Below, piece by piece: positions 1,155 through 9,940 of a stretch of 32,000 nucleotides of DNA. The stretch is taken from positions 930,001 through 962,000 of the forward strand of contig NC_022093.1 of NCBI RefSeq assembly GCF_000446015.1, written 5' to 3'. The notes beneath the pieces are model-generated. The model had not been told where the DNA came from. It ran no database searches and worked only from the letters and a program-made list of their open reading frames with translations. Origin of the DNA: Thermofilum adornatum (lineage in GTDB: Archaea > Thermoproteota > Thermoprotei > Thermofilales > Thermofilaceae). Position 1 is the stretch's first letter. Each line of letters opens with the position of its first letter. The position numbers and the translations under genes were made by a program.

Positions 1155-1886
1155 TTAACGCGTACTCTGCCCGAAGCTGCATGGAGCTATCTCAGTCTGT
1201 AGACCAGCCTCGTCAAGAATGTTCCTAGGGATGGGAGGTTCTCCCTCCCAAATAATCTTCTTATTGCTAAGAATGTAGACATAGTCACTTATTTTCTCAG
1301 CCAGGGCTACATCTTGGCTAGCCAGCAGTATTCCCCTCGATTTTCTGAGGTCGCATAAAAGTTTGAGGAAGAGGGCAGTGGTCTTGGGATCAAGGTTAGC
1401 AAACGGCTCATCTAGGAGGAGATATGTTGGGTCGTATATAATTATGCTTGCTAGCGCCACTCTCCTTTTTTCACCGAAGCTTAGCGCATGGACAGGTTTA
1501 TTCAACAAATGTTCTAGATGGAGCATGTTAGCTACAAGTTGGATCTTTGCCTCTACTTCTCCGCGTGTCAATTCTAACTGGCTTAACGTAAAGAGAAGCT
1601 CATCTCGGACCGTTGGGCTGAATAAATGGTCATCTGGGTTCTGGAACATTACACCAATATACCTCCTAGCGCCTGGCAACATTTCAAACAGATTTTTGCC
1701 ATCAAGTAGAACCTCGCCAGAAAGCGGCCTCAGAAGACCAGAAACAAGCAGTAACAGTGTGGTTTTGCCAGAACCATTTGGTCCCAAGACAGTTTGGATT
1801 CTTCCAGTCTTTACTTGGATAGATACATTCTCAAGCACCAAGTCATCTTTAAGGTAAGAAAATGTAAGATTTCTACCTTCCAGCAT
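1155..1886 (-). CDS. cbiO: ECF/cobalt-type ABC transporter ATPase (CbiO/EcfA family)
   Basis: Walker A GPNGSGKTT, ABC signature LSFGEKRRV and Walker B LLLDEPFANLD. It is the last gene of a tightly packed cbiM-N-Q-O-like operon. Confidence 0.85.
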   Translation of the reverse strand: MLEGRNLTFSYLKDDLVLENVSIQVKTGRIQTVLGPNGSGKTTLLLLVSGLLRPLSGEVLLDGKNLFEMLPGARRYIGVMFQNPDDHLFSPTVRDELLFTLSQLELTRGEVEAKIQLVANMLHLEHLLNKPVHALSFGEKRRVALASIIIYDPTYLLLDEPFANLDPKTTALFLKLLCDLRKSRGILLASQDVALAEKISDYVYILSNKKIIWEGEPPIPRNILDEAGLQTEIAPCSFGQSTR

Positions 1887-6024: not shown

Positions 6025-6282
6025 ATGCGTGAATACTTCAATAAACTCCTCTGGGACAAGACAGTAGACAAGAAACAGGTCAAAGTAAAATTCGTGTCTA
6101 GAGGAACATCTACGCAAACAGACATGTTTACTGGAGAACAAGTTGTCCGGGTCTCACGCGACGGAGTAATTATACTCACAGAAAGCGGTACAGAAAAATA
6201 TATTCCCTACCACAGGATACTCGAGATAACATACTCGGGAAAAACAGTATTTAACAAAAAAGAAGAAAAATATTTTGTTTAG
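6025..6282 (+). CDS. UPF0248/DUF504-family small protein
   Basis: MREYFNKLLWD...KYIPYHRILEI matches my recollection of the archaeal DUF504 pattern (N-terminal L/INKLKWD and C-terminal IPxHRI). The start is taken at the ATG at 6025 rather than the listed 5956. Confidence 0.55.
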   Translation: MREYFNKLLWDKTVDKKQVKVKFVSRGTSTQTDMFTGEQVVRVSRDGVIILTESGTEKYIPYHRILEITYSGKTVFNKKEEKYFV

Positions 6283-7316
6283 ATACCCTTCTCGGCCATG
6301 TAGAGCAAAAGATCCACGAGACGGTTGCTGAAGCCCCACTCGTTGTCGTACCAAGCTACGACTTTTACCTTGTTGCTCTTCCCACCAAGCACCATGCTTG
6401 CCTGCGCGTCATATATCGAGGAGTGCGGGTCCCCCACGATGTCCGAGGAGACTATCGGGTCATCCACGTATTCAAGTATTCCCTTCAAGTAGGTCTCAGA
6501 AGCCTCTTTAAAAGCCGCATCTAGCTCCTCCTTTGTAACCTCTCTGCCTAGCTGAGCAACCAGATCAACAACAGAGCCGTCAGCCACAGGTACACGCATA
6601 GCCATTCCGTCCAGCTTACCCTTCACCTCAGGAATCACTAGGTGCAATGCCCTAGCTGCTCCAGTCGTTGTAGGTATAATATTTAGTGCAGCTGCACGCG
6701 TCCTCCTAAAGTCTTCTGGATGTATTAAGTCTAGGATCCTCTGGTCATTGGTATAAGCGTGGACCGTGGTCATGAATCCCCATTCGAGACCAAAGTTTTT
6801 GAGGAGAACATATACAACTGGCGCTAGACAGTTAGTAGTGCATGATGCATTTGAGATGACTTGGTGTTTCGTTGGGTCGTACATGTGGTGGTTTACTCCC
6901 ATCACGATTGTGACGTCTGCGCCTTTCGAGGGGGCGGTTACGACAACCTTCTTGGCACCGGCTTTGAGGTGAAGAGCGGCCTTGTCTCTATCGGTGAATC
7001 TGCCAGTAGCCTCCATTGCTATGTCTACTCCTAGATCTTTCCAGGGTAACTTGTCGGGGCTAGCTTCATTCAGAATGAGCATCTCGTGTCCTTCTACTAT
7101 GAGCTTGTTGTCCTTGACTTCTACTTTGTACGGGAGACGTCCAAAGACAGAGTCGTATTTAAATAGGTAGGCCAGCATCTGGGGAGAGCCTAGGTCGTTA
7201 ATTGCTACAACCTCAAATTTGTCGAAGAATTTTTCGTTTTTCAGAGCTGCCCGTAAAAAGTTCCTGCCAATTCTTCCAAAACCATTTAGTCCAACCTTTA
7301 TGGTCATACTGGTCAC
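6279..7316 (-). CDS. gap: Glyceraldehyde-3-phosphate dehydrogenase, type I (bacterial/eukaryotic type)
   Basis: N-terminal Rossmann motif VGLNGFGRIGRNFLRA, catalytic site SNASCTTNCLAP and C-terminal WYDNEWGFSNR. The start may instead be the ATG at 7307 (MTIKVG...). Confidence 0.9.
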   Translation of the reverse strand: MTSMTIKVGLNGFGRIGRNFLRAALKNEKFFDKFEVVAINDLGSPQMLAYLFKYDSVFGRLPYKVEVKDNKLIVEGHEMLILNEASPDKLPWKDLGVDIAMEATGRFTDRDKAALHLKAGAKKVVVTAPSKGADVTIVMGVNHHMYDPTKHQVISNASCTTNCLAPVVYVLLKNFGLEWGFMTTVHAYTNDQRILDLIHPEDFRRTRAAALNIIPTTTGAARALHLVIPEVKGKLDGMAMRVPVADGSVVDLVAQLGREVTKEELDAAFKEASETYLKGILEYVDDPIVSSDIVGDPHSSIYDAQASMVLGGKSNKVKVVAWYDNEWGFSNRLVDLLLYMAEKGI

Positions 7317-7344: not shown

Positions 7345-7413
7345 TTCCGATTAAAAAAGCCCAATATTACAAAACCCTGTTAAATTGTTCTCTGGGAAGA
7401 AGTGAAGCTTCAC

Positions 7414-7468
7414 GTATCAGACCTGCACGAGCTCTTCACATATCTGTCCTTCCGAGCGTCATCATTAC
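7414..7468 (-). ncRNA. C/D box sRNA (dual guide)
   Basis: The reverse strand reads GUA-AUGAUGA-CGCUCGGAAGGA-CAGA-UAU-GUGAAGA-GCUCGUGCAGGU-CUGA-UAC. The parts are C box (7465-7459), 12-nt guide, D' variant, 3-nt spacer, C' variant, 12-nt guide, D box (7420-7417) and a 3-bp terminal stem GUA/UAC. This is the canonical archaeal 12-nt spacing. No ORF covers the region. Confidence 0.8.
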
Positions 7469-7490
7469 AAAAAACCTAGTCATGCCCACA

Positions 7491-7498
7491 AATATAAA
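7491..7498 (-). promoter_or_regulatory. TATA box (TTTATATT) for the C/D box sRNA
   Basis: The reverse strand reads GAAGTTTATATTTGTGGGCATGACTAGGTTTTTTGTA followed by the C box. The TATA ends 25 nt before the C box, which predicts a TSS just upstream of the terminal stem. Confidence 0.5.
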
Positions 7499-7568
7499 CT
7501 TCATGGTTCTAGCCACGTAATATTTAATTATCATTTATCACGAGCTTCTGCGAAACTCAGGGCTATAA

Positions 7569-7589
7569 AAGCCTTAATTCTTTAGGCTT
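7569..7589. terminator. Symmetric hairpin (AAGCCU-9 nt-AGGCUU) followed by a U-run, downstream of the tRNA
   Basis: There is a 6-bp inverted repeat at 7569-7574 and 7584-7589. On the minus strand it is followed by UUUUAU. A T-rich tract (AUUUUGUUG) also directly follows the tRNA CCA end. Confidence 0.25.
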
Positions 7590-7621
7590 AATTCCCGAAG
7601 ACTCCCCTATGCAACAAAATA

Positions 7622-7731
7622 TGGTGCCCCGGCCGGGATTTGAACCCGGGATCTTCGGCTCGAGAGGCCGATATCCTTGCGGCCTTGCATCTTCCAGCTC
7701 GTGCAGGTTGACCGGGCTAGACGACCGGGGC
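7622..7731 (-). tRNA. tRNA-Glu(CUC), 110 nt with encoded CCA, interrupted by a 31-nt non-canonical intron in the D-loop/D-stem junction
   Basis: Hand fold: acceptor GCCCCGG/CCGGGGC with discriminator A and CCA; T arm CCGGG-UUCAAAU-CCCGG; anticodon arm UCGGC-CUCUCGA-GCCGA (anticodon CUC at 7664-7662). The D stem GUCU pairs with GGAU only after 31 nt are removed. The exon sequence closely resembles crenarchaeal tRNA-Glu as I remember it (UAGCCCGGUCAA, CUNUCGAGCC). Confidence 0.85.
7677..7707 (-). other. tRNA intron (31 nt; the register is ambiguous by up to 3 nt because CAA is repeated at both junctions)
   Basis: The intron is CCUGCACGAGCUGGAAGAUGCAAGGCCGCAA. Removing it restores an 11-nt D loop AGCCCGGUCAA and the D stem. 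It has an internal hairpin CCUGCA/UGCA(A)GG. I could not fold a canonical bulge-helix-bulge by eye. Confidence 0.65.
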
Positions 7732-7827
7732 TTAGCGCGCGCTAACGGCTTTGATGGAAAGGTGCAAAATGTAAAATGAATCTAGATTTAAAAACTTTTC
7801 ATTGGGTGGAATAAAGGAAGGAAGACT

Positions 7828-9249
7828 GTGCATTTTTTAGCTTGTCTCAGGGCTGGGAAGCCTTTTTTCTCTGAAAAAGGTTTTCTTTTGTTCAAGCAAA
7901 GGTTTTATAATTTCAGGCCTGTTAAGTCCTTGTCTACGCTTGGCGAGCAGGTGAATTGGGAAGTGGCAAGGATACGTTTCCTGGCTATATCGGATGTCCA
8001 CGGCAAAGAGGATCTGGTGGACAAGTTCCTAGAGTGGGTGCAGAAAGAAAACTTGGCATATGACTTCATAGTGGCAGCCGGTGATATTGGGAACCCGCAG
8101 CGCGCTGGAAGCATGTGCAGAATTCTACGAAAGATTTCTTTAACACTTAAGAAGAACGTCTACTATGTTAAGGGTAATTGGGACATTGAAGGGACATGTG
8201 GAGACAAGAGTGTTTTGGATCTAGACGATACTGGTCCGCTGATTTTTGGCAACATTGCACTCATTGGCCACGGAAGAATAGCTGAGCCCTACGAGATACC
8301 AAGCACAGTTAGGGTATCAGTCCTAGTCACTCATTATCCTCCTTTCAGCATCCTTGACAGGGGGAAAGTGATAGACAGCAATCATAGGTCTCTCCATGCG
8401 GGAGTCATTGATATTAACTATCTCATTGACTACTACAAGCCACGGGTACACATTTTTGGGCACAGCCACAGCTTCGGAGGGCTTGATGTCGAACACAATG
8501 GGGTCGTCTATGTAAATGTGGCCAGGCTTGACAGATTGCTGAAGAATGGAGAGTCTATTGGAAACTATGCAATAATAGATGTTTCTGATACGGGAGAAGT
8601 AAAAGTCGAATGGAGATTTATCAATGGCGCCTGGAAAAAATGTACAAGCTGTGGCCGAATAGTTCACATACCAGACAAATGGTCTCTATGCCGCAAATGT
8701 GCACACCGCACAGAACTAAAGTTCGCCAGGATCACTGGGGTACCATACGTTGCAAAGCTTATATTCAGAGACCTGACAAGTGGTCTACAAGTTGCATCCC
8801 CACAGGTAAAAATACCTTTCCACACGCTTAAGGACTACTCGACGTACGAGGAGTTCCTCGATGCATTGGTGCTCAGAGAGGCGAGAAACATGCTTTCAAG
8901 CGATAATTCGAGAGTAGTCGAGGTTCCCAAAGATAAGGTCCTTGAATTCTATAACCAAGTAAACAATAAAAGAATGACTCCCTTCAGCGAATATCTCTTC
9001 GCATGCAATGATAAAGTTAGTGGAAAGCAGTTATGCCTAGTTATGCGTGTGTTTTCCGCAGATAAGAGGGCACATGTGCTATGGAAAATAAAAGAGGATT
9101 CAGAGACAGGTAAAAGAACCCTTGAACAATACATACTCTTTAAGAACGAGCCTGCACAAGCGTTAAACTTCTTAGTAAGCCAGCTAGCCGAGTCTGGATT
9201 CAAGGTTTTAACATATAGCCTAGAGCCTGTCCAGCATGTCCAACAATAA
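7828..9249 (+). CDS. Calcineurin-like metallophosphoesterase fused to a Zn-ribbon and an uncharacterised ~175-aa C-terminal domain
   Basis: The metallophosphoesterase motifs appear in order: AISDVHG, AAGDIGN, VKGNWD, LVTHYPP and IFGHSHS. They are followed by CTSCGRIVHIPDKWSLCRKC (a C4 ribbon) and then a domain with no motif I recognise. The start is uncertain: GTG at 7828 as listed, with GTG candidates at 7951 and 7963. A TATA-like TTTAAAAA lies at 7786-7793. Confidence 0.7.
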   Translation: MHFLACLRAGKPFFSEKGFLLFKQRFYNFRPVKSLSTLGEQVNWEVARIRFLAISDVHGKEDLVDKFLEWVQKENLAYDFIVAAGDIGNPQRAGSMCRILRKISLTLKKNVYYVKGNWDIEGTCGDKSVLDLDDTGPLIFGNIALIGHGRIAEPYEIPSTVRVSVLVTHYPPFSILDRGKVIDSNHRSLHAGVIDINYLIDYYKPRVHIFGHSHSFGGLDVEHNGVVYVNVARLDRLLKNGESIGNYAIIDVSDTGEVKVEWRFINGAWKKCTSCGRIVHIPDKWSLCRKCAHRTELKFARITGVPYVAKLIFRDLTSGLQVASPQVKIPFHTLKDYSTYEEFLDALVLREARNMLSSDNSRVVEVPKDKVLEFYNQVNNKRMTPFSEYLFACNDKVSGKQLCLVMRVFSADKRAHVLWKIKEDSETGKRTLEQYILFKNEPAQALNFLVSQLAESGFKVLTYSLEPVQHVQQ

Positions 9250-9940
9250 AATGAATCTAATAGGAAAAGAACTCTACCGGAAATCGGTACACATTCTACT
9301 CACTATTATCCTGCTTCTACCATACTTAATCCATTTACCCTGGCCGCTTACACTGAACAATTATTATGCAACGGGGCTTTTCTTAGCGGCATTTATAAAC
9401 AGCCTTGTTGCACGTAGAGGCAAAGTTTTAGGCGAACTTAAAAAATTCAGAGAAAACATCGAAGGGATTATCGAGAAGACAAACAAAGAATTAAAACAAC
9501 CATTATTCCTTGTTGAGCAGGCCGTCTCAAAGCTTCAGGAGATAATTTCCACCCAAATTTCCATGCTTGAAAGAGACTATGAGAAGCGGGAGGGCTATGT
9601 CGGTTTGCTTTACGGGATGATTGGGGCCACGCTAAGTATACTTGTCTCTCCCGAGACAACTGTGTATGGTTTACTGGCGCTTGCAACTGTTGATACTGTT
9701 TCTGCACTTCATGACCTCTTTTTTAACAATAGGCAGAAATCACTCAGGGGTTCTTTCCTCGCACTTATAGTATACTTTTTTATCTTGGTGTTGGTTGGTT
9801 CCCCTCTTCTTAGCTCTTTCTTACTATCAATTATTGCCTGTATAACTGAGTACATTTCTCCAGAAGATAACCTAACTGTTCCCTTTGTGACAACACTAGC
9901 GGCCCTTTTTGTAGGAATGCCCCTTAAACCCCCTCTTTGA
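9236..9940 (+). CDS. Polytopic membrane protein, possibly a divergent polyprenol (dolichol/phytol) kinase / CTP-transferase-1 family member
   Basis: N-terminal ELYRKSVHI, then DTVSALHDLFFNNRQKSLRGS (compare the family pattern D..A...G...G....KS.EGS as I recall it) and a terminal E..SPEDNLTVP (compare E....DN..(I/V)P). A charged coiled insert of about 60 aa sits between TM blocks. The gene overlaps its upstream neighbour by 14 nt. Confidence 0.4.
   Translation: MSNNKMNLIGKELYRKSVHILLTIILLLPYLIHLPWPLTLNNYYATGLFLAAFINSLVARRGKVLGELKKFRENIEGIIEKTNKELKQPLFLVEQAVSKLQEIISTQISMLERDYEKREGYVGLLYGMIGATLSILVSPETTVYGLLALATVDTVSALHDLFFNNRQKSLRGSFLALIVYFFILVLVGSPLLSSFLLSIIACITEYISPEDNLTVPFVTTLAALFVGMPLKPPL

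Follow-up and report, generated by a model that had tools for sequence, protein, structure and literature searches.

The box C/D small RNA (sRNA) sR-tMet of Haloferax volcanii reportedly acts on the intron-containing precursor of tRNA-Met, its one guide duplex lying over the anticodon loop next to the canonical 37/38 intron. Here we describe a locus in a 32,000-nucleotide (nt) stretch of Thermofilum adornatum DNA (hereafter the window; NCBI RefSeq assembly GCF_000446015.1, contig NC_022093.1, positions 930,001 to 962,000; all coordinates below are those of the window, with the strand in brackets), where a gene for a box C/D sRNA stands beside a gene for pre-tRNA-Glu(CUC) interrupted by an intron in its D loop. 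One guide of this RNA, next to box D (the D guide), is an exact complement of the beginning of the intron; the other, next to box D' (the D' guide), matches the anticodon stem-loop of the isoacceptor tRNA-Glu(UUC). In contrast to sR-tMet, a separate guide falls wholly on a non-canonical D-loop intron some 15 nt upstream of the other target, and the nucleotide to which the N+5 rule assigns 2'-O-methylation is intronic. An initial annotation, made from the sequence of the window, had noticed the pairing between sRNA and intron; it overlooked the D' guide, whose complementarity to the tRNA-Glu(UUC) anticodon loop gives that pairing a functional context.

Other described systems share single features with this locus. 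In Sulfolobales and Aeropyrum, H/ACA sRNAs for pseudouridine 35 pair with the anticodon loop and intron of pre-tRNA-Tyr, show compensatory changes between species and have no rRNA target (Muller et al. 2009, PMC2651775). They too are crenarchaeal guide RNAs that pair with pre-tRNA intron sequence, but they direct pseudouridylation, the intron is canonical, and both guide strands flank a single modified exon base. The pre-tRNA-Trp intron, as outlined in the sources cited, is itself a box C/D guide for methylation of positions 34 and 39, with two guides on one pre-tRNA (Clouet-d'Orval 2001; Singh 2004; PMC7994747). There, as here, a tRNA intron is coupled to C/D-guided methylation of position 34 and two guides are involved; the intron, however, is the guide in that case, whereas in T. 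adornatum an sRNA with a gene of its own would target the intron or dock on it. C34 of tRNA-Glu is the predicted target of Pyrobaculum sR51 (Lui et al. 2018, PMC6009581). This too is a C/D sRNA of the Thermoproteales with one guide against the tRNA-Glu anticodon loop and a partner called orphan in scans of mature tRNA and rRNA, but it addresses the other isoacceptor (CUC) through its D guide, and intron pairing is not reported for it. Double-guide sRNAs of rRNA, whose sites lie less than 100 nt apart in one precursor, have been proposed as folding chaperones (PMC4644070; PMC6009581). The likeness resides in the two sites on one precursor and in a pairing proposed to matter beyond methylation; the difference is that the substrate here is a pre-tRNA and that one of the sites is spliced out. 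The largest comparative study searched mature tRNA and rRNA targets only (PMC6009581), and we found no description of a guide pairing with a D-loop intron in the searchable literature. What sets the present case apart is a whole guide for a non-canonical D-loop intron, with an intronic methylation site, combined with an exon-only wobble guide.

The sRNA, which we call sR-tGlu, spans 7414-7468 (-), is about 53 nt long and ends in a short terminal stem, GUA/UAC, as judged from box layout and ortholog alignment. The C box AUGAUGA (7459-7465, -), whose TGA and GA positions are invariant in 8 of 8 orthologs, is followed by the 12-nt D' guide CGCUCGGAAGGA (7447-7458, -), by the D' box CAGA (7443-7446, -), found 12 nt past the C box in all orthologs, by a 3-nt linker and the C' box GUGAAGA (7433-7439, -), and finally by the 12-nt D guide GCUCGUGCAGGU (7421-7432, -) and the D box CUGA (7417-7420, -). 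Terminal C and D boxes, internal D' and C' boxes, two 12-nt spacers and a terminal stem are what is expected of an archaeal box C/D sRNA, and the layout is common to the 8 orthologs. A TATA-like element read from the sequence, GAAGTTTATATTTG (7489-7502, -), lies about 25-35 nt upstream, and TTTAT/ATTTAA-like elements precede the orthologs by about 30 nt; this would imply a promoter of its own for sR-tGlu. At gathering threshold the sRNA has no match in Rfam (best relaxed match sR5, 25.5 bits against a gathering score of 40), as expected because the guides are family-specific and the family undescribed. A sequence model of the family scores the window copy at 59.9 bits (E 5e-17). Two further features adjoin the gene. 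A perfect 12-nt palindrome, GTGAAGCTTCAC (7402-7413, -), is found 3 nt past box D with a pyrimidine run behind it, and may form a terminator or 3'-end hairpin of the transcript. Between the tRNA and the sRNA, AGAAGCTCGTGATAAATGATAA (7528-7549, -) repeats AGCTCGTG of the C'-box/D-guide junction and continues with ATGATAA, and may be a degenerate leftover of an sRNA duplication.

The segment 7433-7421 (-), AGCTCGTGCAGGT (also given as AGCUCGUGCAGGU), is the exact reverse complement of 7708-7696 (-), ACCTGCACGAGCT, as initially annotated. With up to one mismatch allowed, the 12-mer ACCTGCACGAGC occurs at these two places only in the 32-kb window; dinucleotide shuffles lead one to expect 0.05 matches, and none of 100 shuffles gave at least two. 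This confirms the claim that the complementarity is not due to chance. The guide had been taken to be 13 nt long, and all 13 letters do match, but the thirteenth pair involves A7433, the last base of box C', leaving a usable guide of 12 nt.

The pre-tRNA-Glu(CUC) gene is 110 nt long (7622-7731, -), encodes its CCA and scores 27.3 bits against the Rfam tRNA model at a relaxed threshold. Its 5' exon (7709-7731, -) comprises the 5' strands of the acceptor and D stems and the D loop to C20a-A20b, and is identical in T. pendens and in three other compared loci (L005, L006 and L025; labels of this form denote the loci used for comparison). The 3' exon (7622-7677, -) carries the anticodon CUC at 7662-7664, as read from the sequence. 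Between them, at positions ~20b and 21 of the tRNA, lies a 31-nt insert (7678-7708, -) whose borders are drawn by a bulge-helix-bulge (BHB): a 4-bp central helix of CGGU (7711-7714, -) with GCCG (7680-7683, -), flanked by 3-nt bulges (CA|A) on opposite strands, with cleavage past the second bulge base. The 5' splice site accordingly falls between 7709 and 7708. The same helix, with a 2+1-nt bulge on each side, can be formed in 12 of the 12 orthologous or paralogous genes tabulated, its 3' strand reading GCCG, GCUG or ACCG across related CUC and UUC genes. With outer helices that are weak, the motif is a relaxed one. Removal of the insert yields a 79-nt tRNA-Glu(CUC), CCA included, with a D stem (GUCU/GGAU), an anticodon arm and a T arm. 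By its BHB geometry and the restored cloverleaf, then, 7678-7708 qualifies on sequence as an archaeal BHB intron at a non-canonical position. Neither this tRNA nor the sRNA was detected in the window by ARAGORN or by Rfam at gathering thresholds; the tRNA is missed because the intron interrupts its D loop.

In this frame the D guide pairs with intron nt 1-12 (7697-7708, -), and the duplex abuts the splice junction without crossing it. The initial annotation had it span the exon-intron junction; an A/A ambiguity makes the two registers equivalent in sequence, and the BHB geometry decides for the intronic one. Its assignment of the N+5 nucleotide to an intronic G7704 stands, this being intron nt 5. 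Within the duplex lie the third base of the 5' splice-site bulge and the strand next to it; the latter is, in the window species, the whole 5' strand of BHB helix B. Guide binding must therefore be in competition with the bulge at the 5' splice site and, in the window species, with helix B as well, so that it and endonuclease recognition should exclude each other. The intron hairpin CCUGCA/UGCAAGG described in the initial annotation is confined to the expanded intron of this species, the 15-20-nt introns of relatives being unable to form it. As computed by RNAfold, the minimum free energy (MFE) structure of the pre-tRNA (7622-7731, -) is not a cloverleaf: D-loop CCCGG pairs with T-arm sequence, for -49.1 kcal/mol, and the BHB/cloverleaf fold, at -38.6 kcal/mol, lies 10.5 higher. 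A GC-rich, repetitive pre-tRNA with a non-cloverleaf MFE structure is compatible with, and no demonstration of, a chaperone benefit.

The core of the D' guide, GCUCG(A/G)AAGG, is invariant in 8 of 8 sequences, including the Sulfolobus homolog described below, and its complement, CCUU(Y)CGAGC, corresponds to the anticodon stem-loop of tRNA-Glu(UUC). Genes for this tRNA were found by a metagenome scan using the acceptor stem of the present tRNA, and were assigned to lineages by exon similarity only. With GCCUUUCGAGCC (C31-C40) of these genes the D' guide forms 10-11 contiguous pairs, at -17.7 to -23.2 kcal/mol, with a U34-A pair at N+5; opposite U35 four lineages have A in the guide and three have G, either of which can pair with U. 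For tRNA-Glu(UUC) there are, in other words, the at least 9 bp and the Watson-Crick pair at N+5 = position 34 that a position-34 guide calls for. They are not found for the neighbouring tRNA-Glu(CUC), where C34 faces an A.C mismatch, and it is established from in vitro work that a mismatch at the target position should block methylation. From its sequence, sR-tGlu should be a tRNA-Glu-specific modification guide, with predicted 2'-O-methylation of wobble U34. With D' matching tRNA-Glu, the guide that complements the intron is the second one of a tRNA-specific sRNA. Introns at this position also occur in tRNA-Glu(UUC) genes of the Thermofilum type (GCCUGCGCGGCCGAC in L036/51/55/75, GCCUGCGCAGGCCGCA in L043) and of the Infirmifilum type (ACUGCACAAGGCUGAG). 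Relative to the CUC introns these have A-to-G changes at nt 1 and 7; the D guide has U opposite both and can therefore pair with either intron, through Watson-Crick pairs (CUC) or G.U pairs (UUC). Another candidate for the D' guide, tRNA-Gly(UCC), was set aside: its A37 would mismatch, against the 10-11 pairs of tRNA-Glu(UUC). The metagenome scan also returned nine loci (L061, L069, L076, L082, L119, L130, L133, L135 and L143) in which tRNA-Glu(UUC) is represented by its 3' portion only, starting at about nt 27 and with the anticodon; in place of a 5' half there is AT-rich, promoter-like DNA. They may be halves of split tRNAs or remnants of attachment sites.

Conservation was followed through the Thermofilaceae, the clades being defined by GAPDH identity: the window species, T. 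pendens and L025 form one (the T. pendens clade), L014, L015 and L017 its sister, and Infirmifilum the outgroup. Orthologs of tRNA-Glu(CUC) in seven further lineages, eight Thermofilaceae lineages in total, all have an intron at the same BHB-defined position (T. pendens ACCUGCACGAGGCUGAG; L025 ACCUGCACGGCCGAC; Infirmifilum KC_020 ACCUGCACAAGGCUGAA; Thermofilum sp. P1 GCCUGCACGAGGGCCGCG; L007 AGCCUGCACGGGGCACCGAA; L008 AGCCCAGCCCUGCACGGGUACCGAA). Its length ranges from 15 to 31 nt and its 3' part is free to vary; the 5' core (A/G)CCUGCAC is kept across lineages in which the adjoining metallophosphoesterase is only 55-79% identical to that of the window. The introns of 15-17 nt have essentially no self-structure (-0.1 to -2.3 kcal/mol), so that a hairpin cannot explain why the core is conserved. 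The duplex of guide and intron has -24.6 kcal/mol in the window; that of T. pendens, 11 bp long, has -21.6 kcal/mol; L025 forms 9 Watson-Crick pairs and 1 G.U. Duplex energies are lowest for matching guide/intron classes, and in every class complementarity begins at the same register, intron nt 1-2. An intron kept in place with its 5' core in eight lineages, together with a guide conserved in T. pendens and Infirmifilum, supports evolutionary maintenance of the complementarity. A guide pairing with a precursor intron, as in intron-dependent guided modification, was found; a single duplex spanning exon and intron around a modified exon base was not, the D' (exon) and D (intron) duplexes being separate, about 15 nt apart, with an intronic N+5 base for the latter. 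Further introns also occur in this tRNA gene: in T. pendens Hrk5 a second one, 29 nt long, separates the variable region from the T stem (L011, 2496-2617) and is lacking in the window species, and in L007 and L008 a second intron lies in the 3' side of the anticodon arm.

Copies of the sRNA are found upstream of the GAPDH gene in T. pendens, L025, L014, L015/16, L017-19 and Infirmifilum KC_020, all with 12-nt spacers; their terminal stems differ in sequence but stay complementary (GUA/UAC, CGCA/UGCG, GGCCG/CGGCC, ACG/CGU). A search of 960 kb with the family model gave no further copies. The sRNA adjoins tRNA-Glu(CUC) in the T. pendens clade only. Co-transcription with the tRNA was considered as a reason for the match and rejected, the family persisting at non-adjacent sites in Infirmifilum and the sister clade.

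A more distant relative is already in the literature. Sac-sR114, in an RNA-seq-derived list of Sulfolobus acidocaldarius sRNAs (669612, minus strand; abundance column 24853; Dennis et al. 2015, PMC4644070), reads AUGAAGA-GGCUCGAAAGGU-CUGA-...-AUGAUGA-UCCCGCGCAGGU-CGGA and is clearly homologous to sR-tGlu. The two share the D' guide core and have related D guides (UCCCGCGCAGGU in Sac-sR114), and the atypical C box AUGAAGA and D box CGGA of Sac-sR114 recur in the Infirmifilum copy. The listing of Sac-sR114 speaks for the predicted expression of sR-tGlu. With a UUC-type intron its D guide forms 9 contiguous Watson-Crick pairs (-21.3 kcal/mol). It bears no mark on the 16S or 23S methylation maps (PMC4644070). 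As to Pyrobaculum sR51, the "orphan" D' guide AGCUAGGCGCUGC of PCAsR51 from P. calidifontis (sequence in PMC4644070) is complementary over 8 nt to the 5' end, GCCUAGCU, of a metagenomic tRNA-Glu(UUC) D-loop intron in L096; this is a weak lead, not evidence, that intron docking may be more general.

The D guide itself varies between clades. The outgroup and the T. pendens clade have ACUCGUGCAGGU in common, to which a G at the first position adds a twelfth pair in the window species; the sister clade has AACCGGGCAGGU (L014) or UCCCGGGCAAGU (L015-19), changed at 3-4 positions. The UCCCGGGCAAGU guide forms 10 contiguous Watson-Crick pairs with CCCUUGCCCGGGCCGCG (CCCUUGCCCGGGCC; L123, L159), a variant D-loop intron of tRNA-Glu(UUC), the register being almost unchanged; only 9 of 5000 shuffled guides attain this match length. 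The energy is -21.5 kcal/mol with the variant intron, -5 to -8 with CUC introns of the first clade and -8 to -11 with its UUC introns. Judged by sequence, this suggests co-variation of guide and intron at three positions. The comparison of genomes advised in the initial annotation has in this way produced a conserved pairing and, in the sister-clade match, a candidate for co-variation. A relative with the intron absent, the guide unchanged and 23S rRNA matched equally well, named there as evidence to the contrary, was looked for and not encountered.

We lean, with moderate confidence, towards a reading of sR-tGlu as a dual-guide sRNA dedicated to tRNA-Glu that acts on the precursor, with the D-loop intron as a second docking site. 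The D' guide would pair with the tRNA-Glu(UUC) anticodon stem-loop and direct 2'-O-methylation of U34, and the D guide would pair with the first 10-12 nt of the pre-tRNA-Glu intron, perfectly for CUC and via G.U for UUC. The small ribonucleoprotein (sRNP) would recognize the intron-containing precursor, docking to the intron raising its affinity and holding a GC-rich pre-tRNA open. On pre-tRNA-Glu(UUC) the D site (intron nt 1-10) and the D' site (C31-C40) would be about 15 nt apart, co-linear with and antiparallel to the succession of D guide, 14-nt C'/D' module and D' guide in the sRNA, so that docking might take place at once or in sequence. One could envision that the duplex on the 5' splice-site bulge delays the splicing endonuclease until the sRNP departs, so that modification would precede splicing; in that case a methyl group at intron G5 would mark the excised intron or simply arise as a by-product. 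Methylation itself, simultaneous binding to two sites and the order of splicing are predicted from complementarity, and the functional model drawn from it is plausible. The chaperone or timer proposed in the initial annotation may form part of it, and the interpretation given there is on the whole partly supported.

Most archaeal C/D guides target rRNA (PMC6009581), and the D guide could do so as well, the intron merely resembling or mimicking helix 71 of 23S rRNA or another rRNA site. The initial annotation had cautioned in this sense, giving GACCUGCACGAAUGG as part of a nearly universal segment of 23S domain IV. On crenarchaeal proxies that caveat does not hold up. GACCUGCACGAAUGG is the bacterial helix 71 sequence, and it is with a bacterial helix 71, ACCUGCACGAAU, in the large-subunit (LSU) rRNA of L028, that the guide forms 10 contiguous pairs (-18 to -19 kcal/mol). 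On proxies for Thermofilum's own rRNA, namely the 16S/23S alignments of Dennis et al. 2015 (PMC4644070), helix 71 reads GGCG(U/C)GCAUGAAUGG, not ACCUGCACGAAUGG, in 4 of 4 crenarchaea: GGCGUGCAUGAAUGG (longer reading GUUCCGGCGUGCAUGAAUGG) in P. calidifontis and T. tenax, GGCGCGCAUGAAUGG (GUUCCGGCGCGCAUGAAUGG) in S. acidocaldarius and I. hospitalis. CCUGCAC is in none of the seven archaeal 23S or 16S sequences and, within the alignment, in E. coli only. With the Thermoproteales helix 71 the D guide makes 7 contiguous pairs but meets a G.G mismatch two positions away from the target, and the energy is -13.0 kcal/mol, where the intron has -24.6; with that of S. acidocaldarius and I. hospitalis, again over 7 contiguous pairs, it is -9.6 kcal/mol. 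On these crenarchaeal proxies the site falls short of the 9 bp that Dennis et al. demand of a guide-target match (PMC4644070), and the best alternative rRNA 7-mer is CUGCACG in 16S; no comparable site exists in the published crenarchaeal rRNAs. In 1.1 Mb of compared loci there were no rRNA motifs, and a scan of viral contigs for the helix-71 pattern gave one bacterial LSU and non-rRNA matches. Guide nt 11 (C) moreover suits a G in the intron and not the A of the rRNA, the homolog Sac-sR114 is without an rRNA target (PMC4644070), and the 3-4 changes in the sister-clade D guide would not be permitted by an invariant rRNA target. The sister-clade guides do match a variable 16S segment of Pyrobaculum/Thermoproteus, UUUUGCCCGGU, with 8 Watson-Crick pairs plus G.U matches (-16 to -18 kcal/mol). 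On these sequences the rRNA alternative appears weakened, and we hold it to be very unlikely.

The D guide might also be an orphan or drifting, its match a coincidence or relic, with the intron core kept for reasons unrelated to the sRNA such as endonuclease recognition, transposition or gene conversion. About 80% of the tRNA-targeting Pyrobaculum sRNAs have one targetless guide (PMC6009581), and Thermoproteales introns share sequence via transposition, at least in the form in which Fujishima 2010 is cited in PMC4090602. The weak pairing in Infirmifilum and the lack of covariation within the T. pendens clade would fit as well. Archaeal sRNPs accommodate about 10 bp, and the eleventh and twelfth pairs of the window duplex may be unusable. 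Such a relic nevertheless strikes us as unlikely: a perfect match of 11-12 nt is very improbable by chance and has lasted in the window, T. pendens and L025, the sRNA has its other guide directed at the same tRNA family, the register is the same in every class with a guide U exactly at the two intron positions that differ by A or G, and the short introns offer no internal structure that could constrain the core. A different possibility, which would leave the D' guide aside, is that the sRNP times or licenses removal of a relaxed-BHB intron, or that the intron, perhaps after excision, titrates the sRNA as a decoy. It could account for the overlap of the duplex with the 5' bulge base (in the window species, with the whole 5' strand of helix B), for an MFE fold 10 kcal/mol below the BHB-competent one, and for a D guide that fits best the CUC intron, in a tRNA whose C34 the D' guide cannot methylate. 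To our knowledge, there is no known mechanism by which a C/D sRNP would license cleavage by EndA. Crenarchaeal endonucleases, as outlined in PMC3488258, accept relaxed BHB motifs without helpers, and the invariance of the D' guide shows the anticodon loop to be part of what the family is selected for; we regard a role limited to splicing or titration as quite improbable.

The reading of sR-tGlu as a precursor-acting guide dedicated to tRNA-Glu has to contend with several observations that weigh against it, the 16S match of the sister-clade guides among them. Each guide is optimal for a different isoacceptor, the D guide fitting the CUC intron best and yet D' placing A.C at C34 of that tRNA. 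None of the genomes with an sRNA copy yielded a tRNA-Glu(UUC) gene. The T. pendens clade, whose members all have one and the same paired core, shows no covariation, and in Infirmifilum the guide-intron pairing has decayed to 7 contiguous bp. The variant intron CCCUUGCCCGGGCC could not be tied to the sister-clade genomes, the 29-kb L159 having no genes in common with any reference locus, and the contigs that carry it (L034, L123, L159) look like an insertion beside a partial tRNA copy.

The surroundings of that variant gene can be described in some detail. In L159 (9700-11200), and also in L123 and L034, a two-intron tRNA-Glu(UUC) has as neighbours a 337-aa open reading frame (ORF) and, in inverted orientation, a partial 3' copy of tRNA-Glu; searching for homologs of the ORF brought up metagenome proteins only. 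The flanking genes of L159 are 99.6-100% identical to those of L109 (98.8% for the flank-most ORF, over the part present in L109), and L109 has at the same place a different, intron-less tRNA-Glu(UUC). This arrangement suggests an inserted or mobile segment at a tRNA-Glu gene.

Why archaea, and especially Thermoproteales and Thermofilales, keep so many oddly placed tRNA introns is an old question. The main proposals have been protection from integrating elements and accidental transposition. If sR-tGlu does dock on the precursor as we propose, one D-loop intron gains a biochemical role, part of the class of "orphan" C/D guides is explained, and ideas on chaperoning and ordering by guide RNAs extend from rRNA to tRNA maturation. 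The idea can be tested directly in the tractable S. acidocaldarius, because this organism expresses the homolog Sac-sR114. It is tempting to speculate further that the "orphan" second guides of archaeal tRNA-targeting C/D sRNAs are intron-docking guides, overlooked because target searches use mature tRNA sequences, and that non-canonical crenarchaeal introns co-evolve with them as handles that order anticodon-loop modification before splicing; so general a rule is a tentative proposition, and a somewhat doubtful one.

Of the neighbouring genes, the type I GAPDH gene (6279-7307, -) lies downstream of the sRNA in every Thermofilaceae genome examined; its window product is identical to that of the metagenome-assembled genome GCA_038873655.1 and shares 93% identity with its counterpart in Thermofilum pendens Hrk5. 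The tRNA gene is preceded by a putative TATA-like element read from the sequence (7784-7799, -) and, beyond it, by a metallophosphoesterase gene (7930-9249, +) with relatives in Infirmifilum, Thermofilum and other Thermofilaceae. The tRNA-Glu(CUC) gene stands upstream of the latter in the window, T. pendens, L025 and L005-L008; in the sister clade (L022, L024) the metallophosphoesterase neighbourhood has no tRNA-Glu. In other Thermofilaceae tRNA-Glu(CUC) is followed by an intron-containing tRNA with anticodon CGU (Thr; UGU in L006), located at ~9560-9700 (-) in L005-L007, and such a tRNA is also found at ~1160-1260 (+) in L022 and ~9780-9880 (+) in L024. In the window species and T. pendens, the sRNA and GAPDH fill the slot of that Thr tRNA, which points to a local rearrangement.

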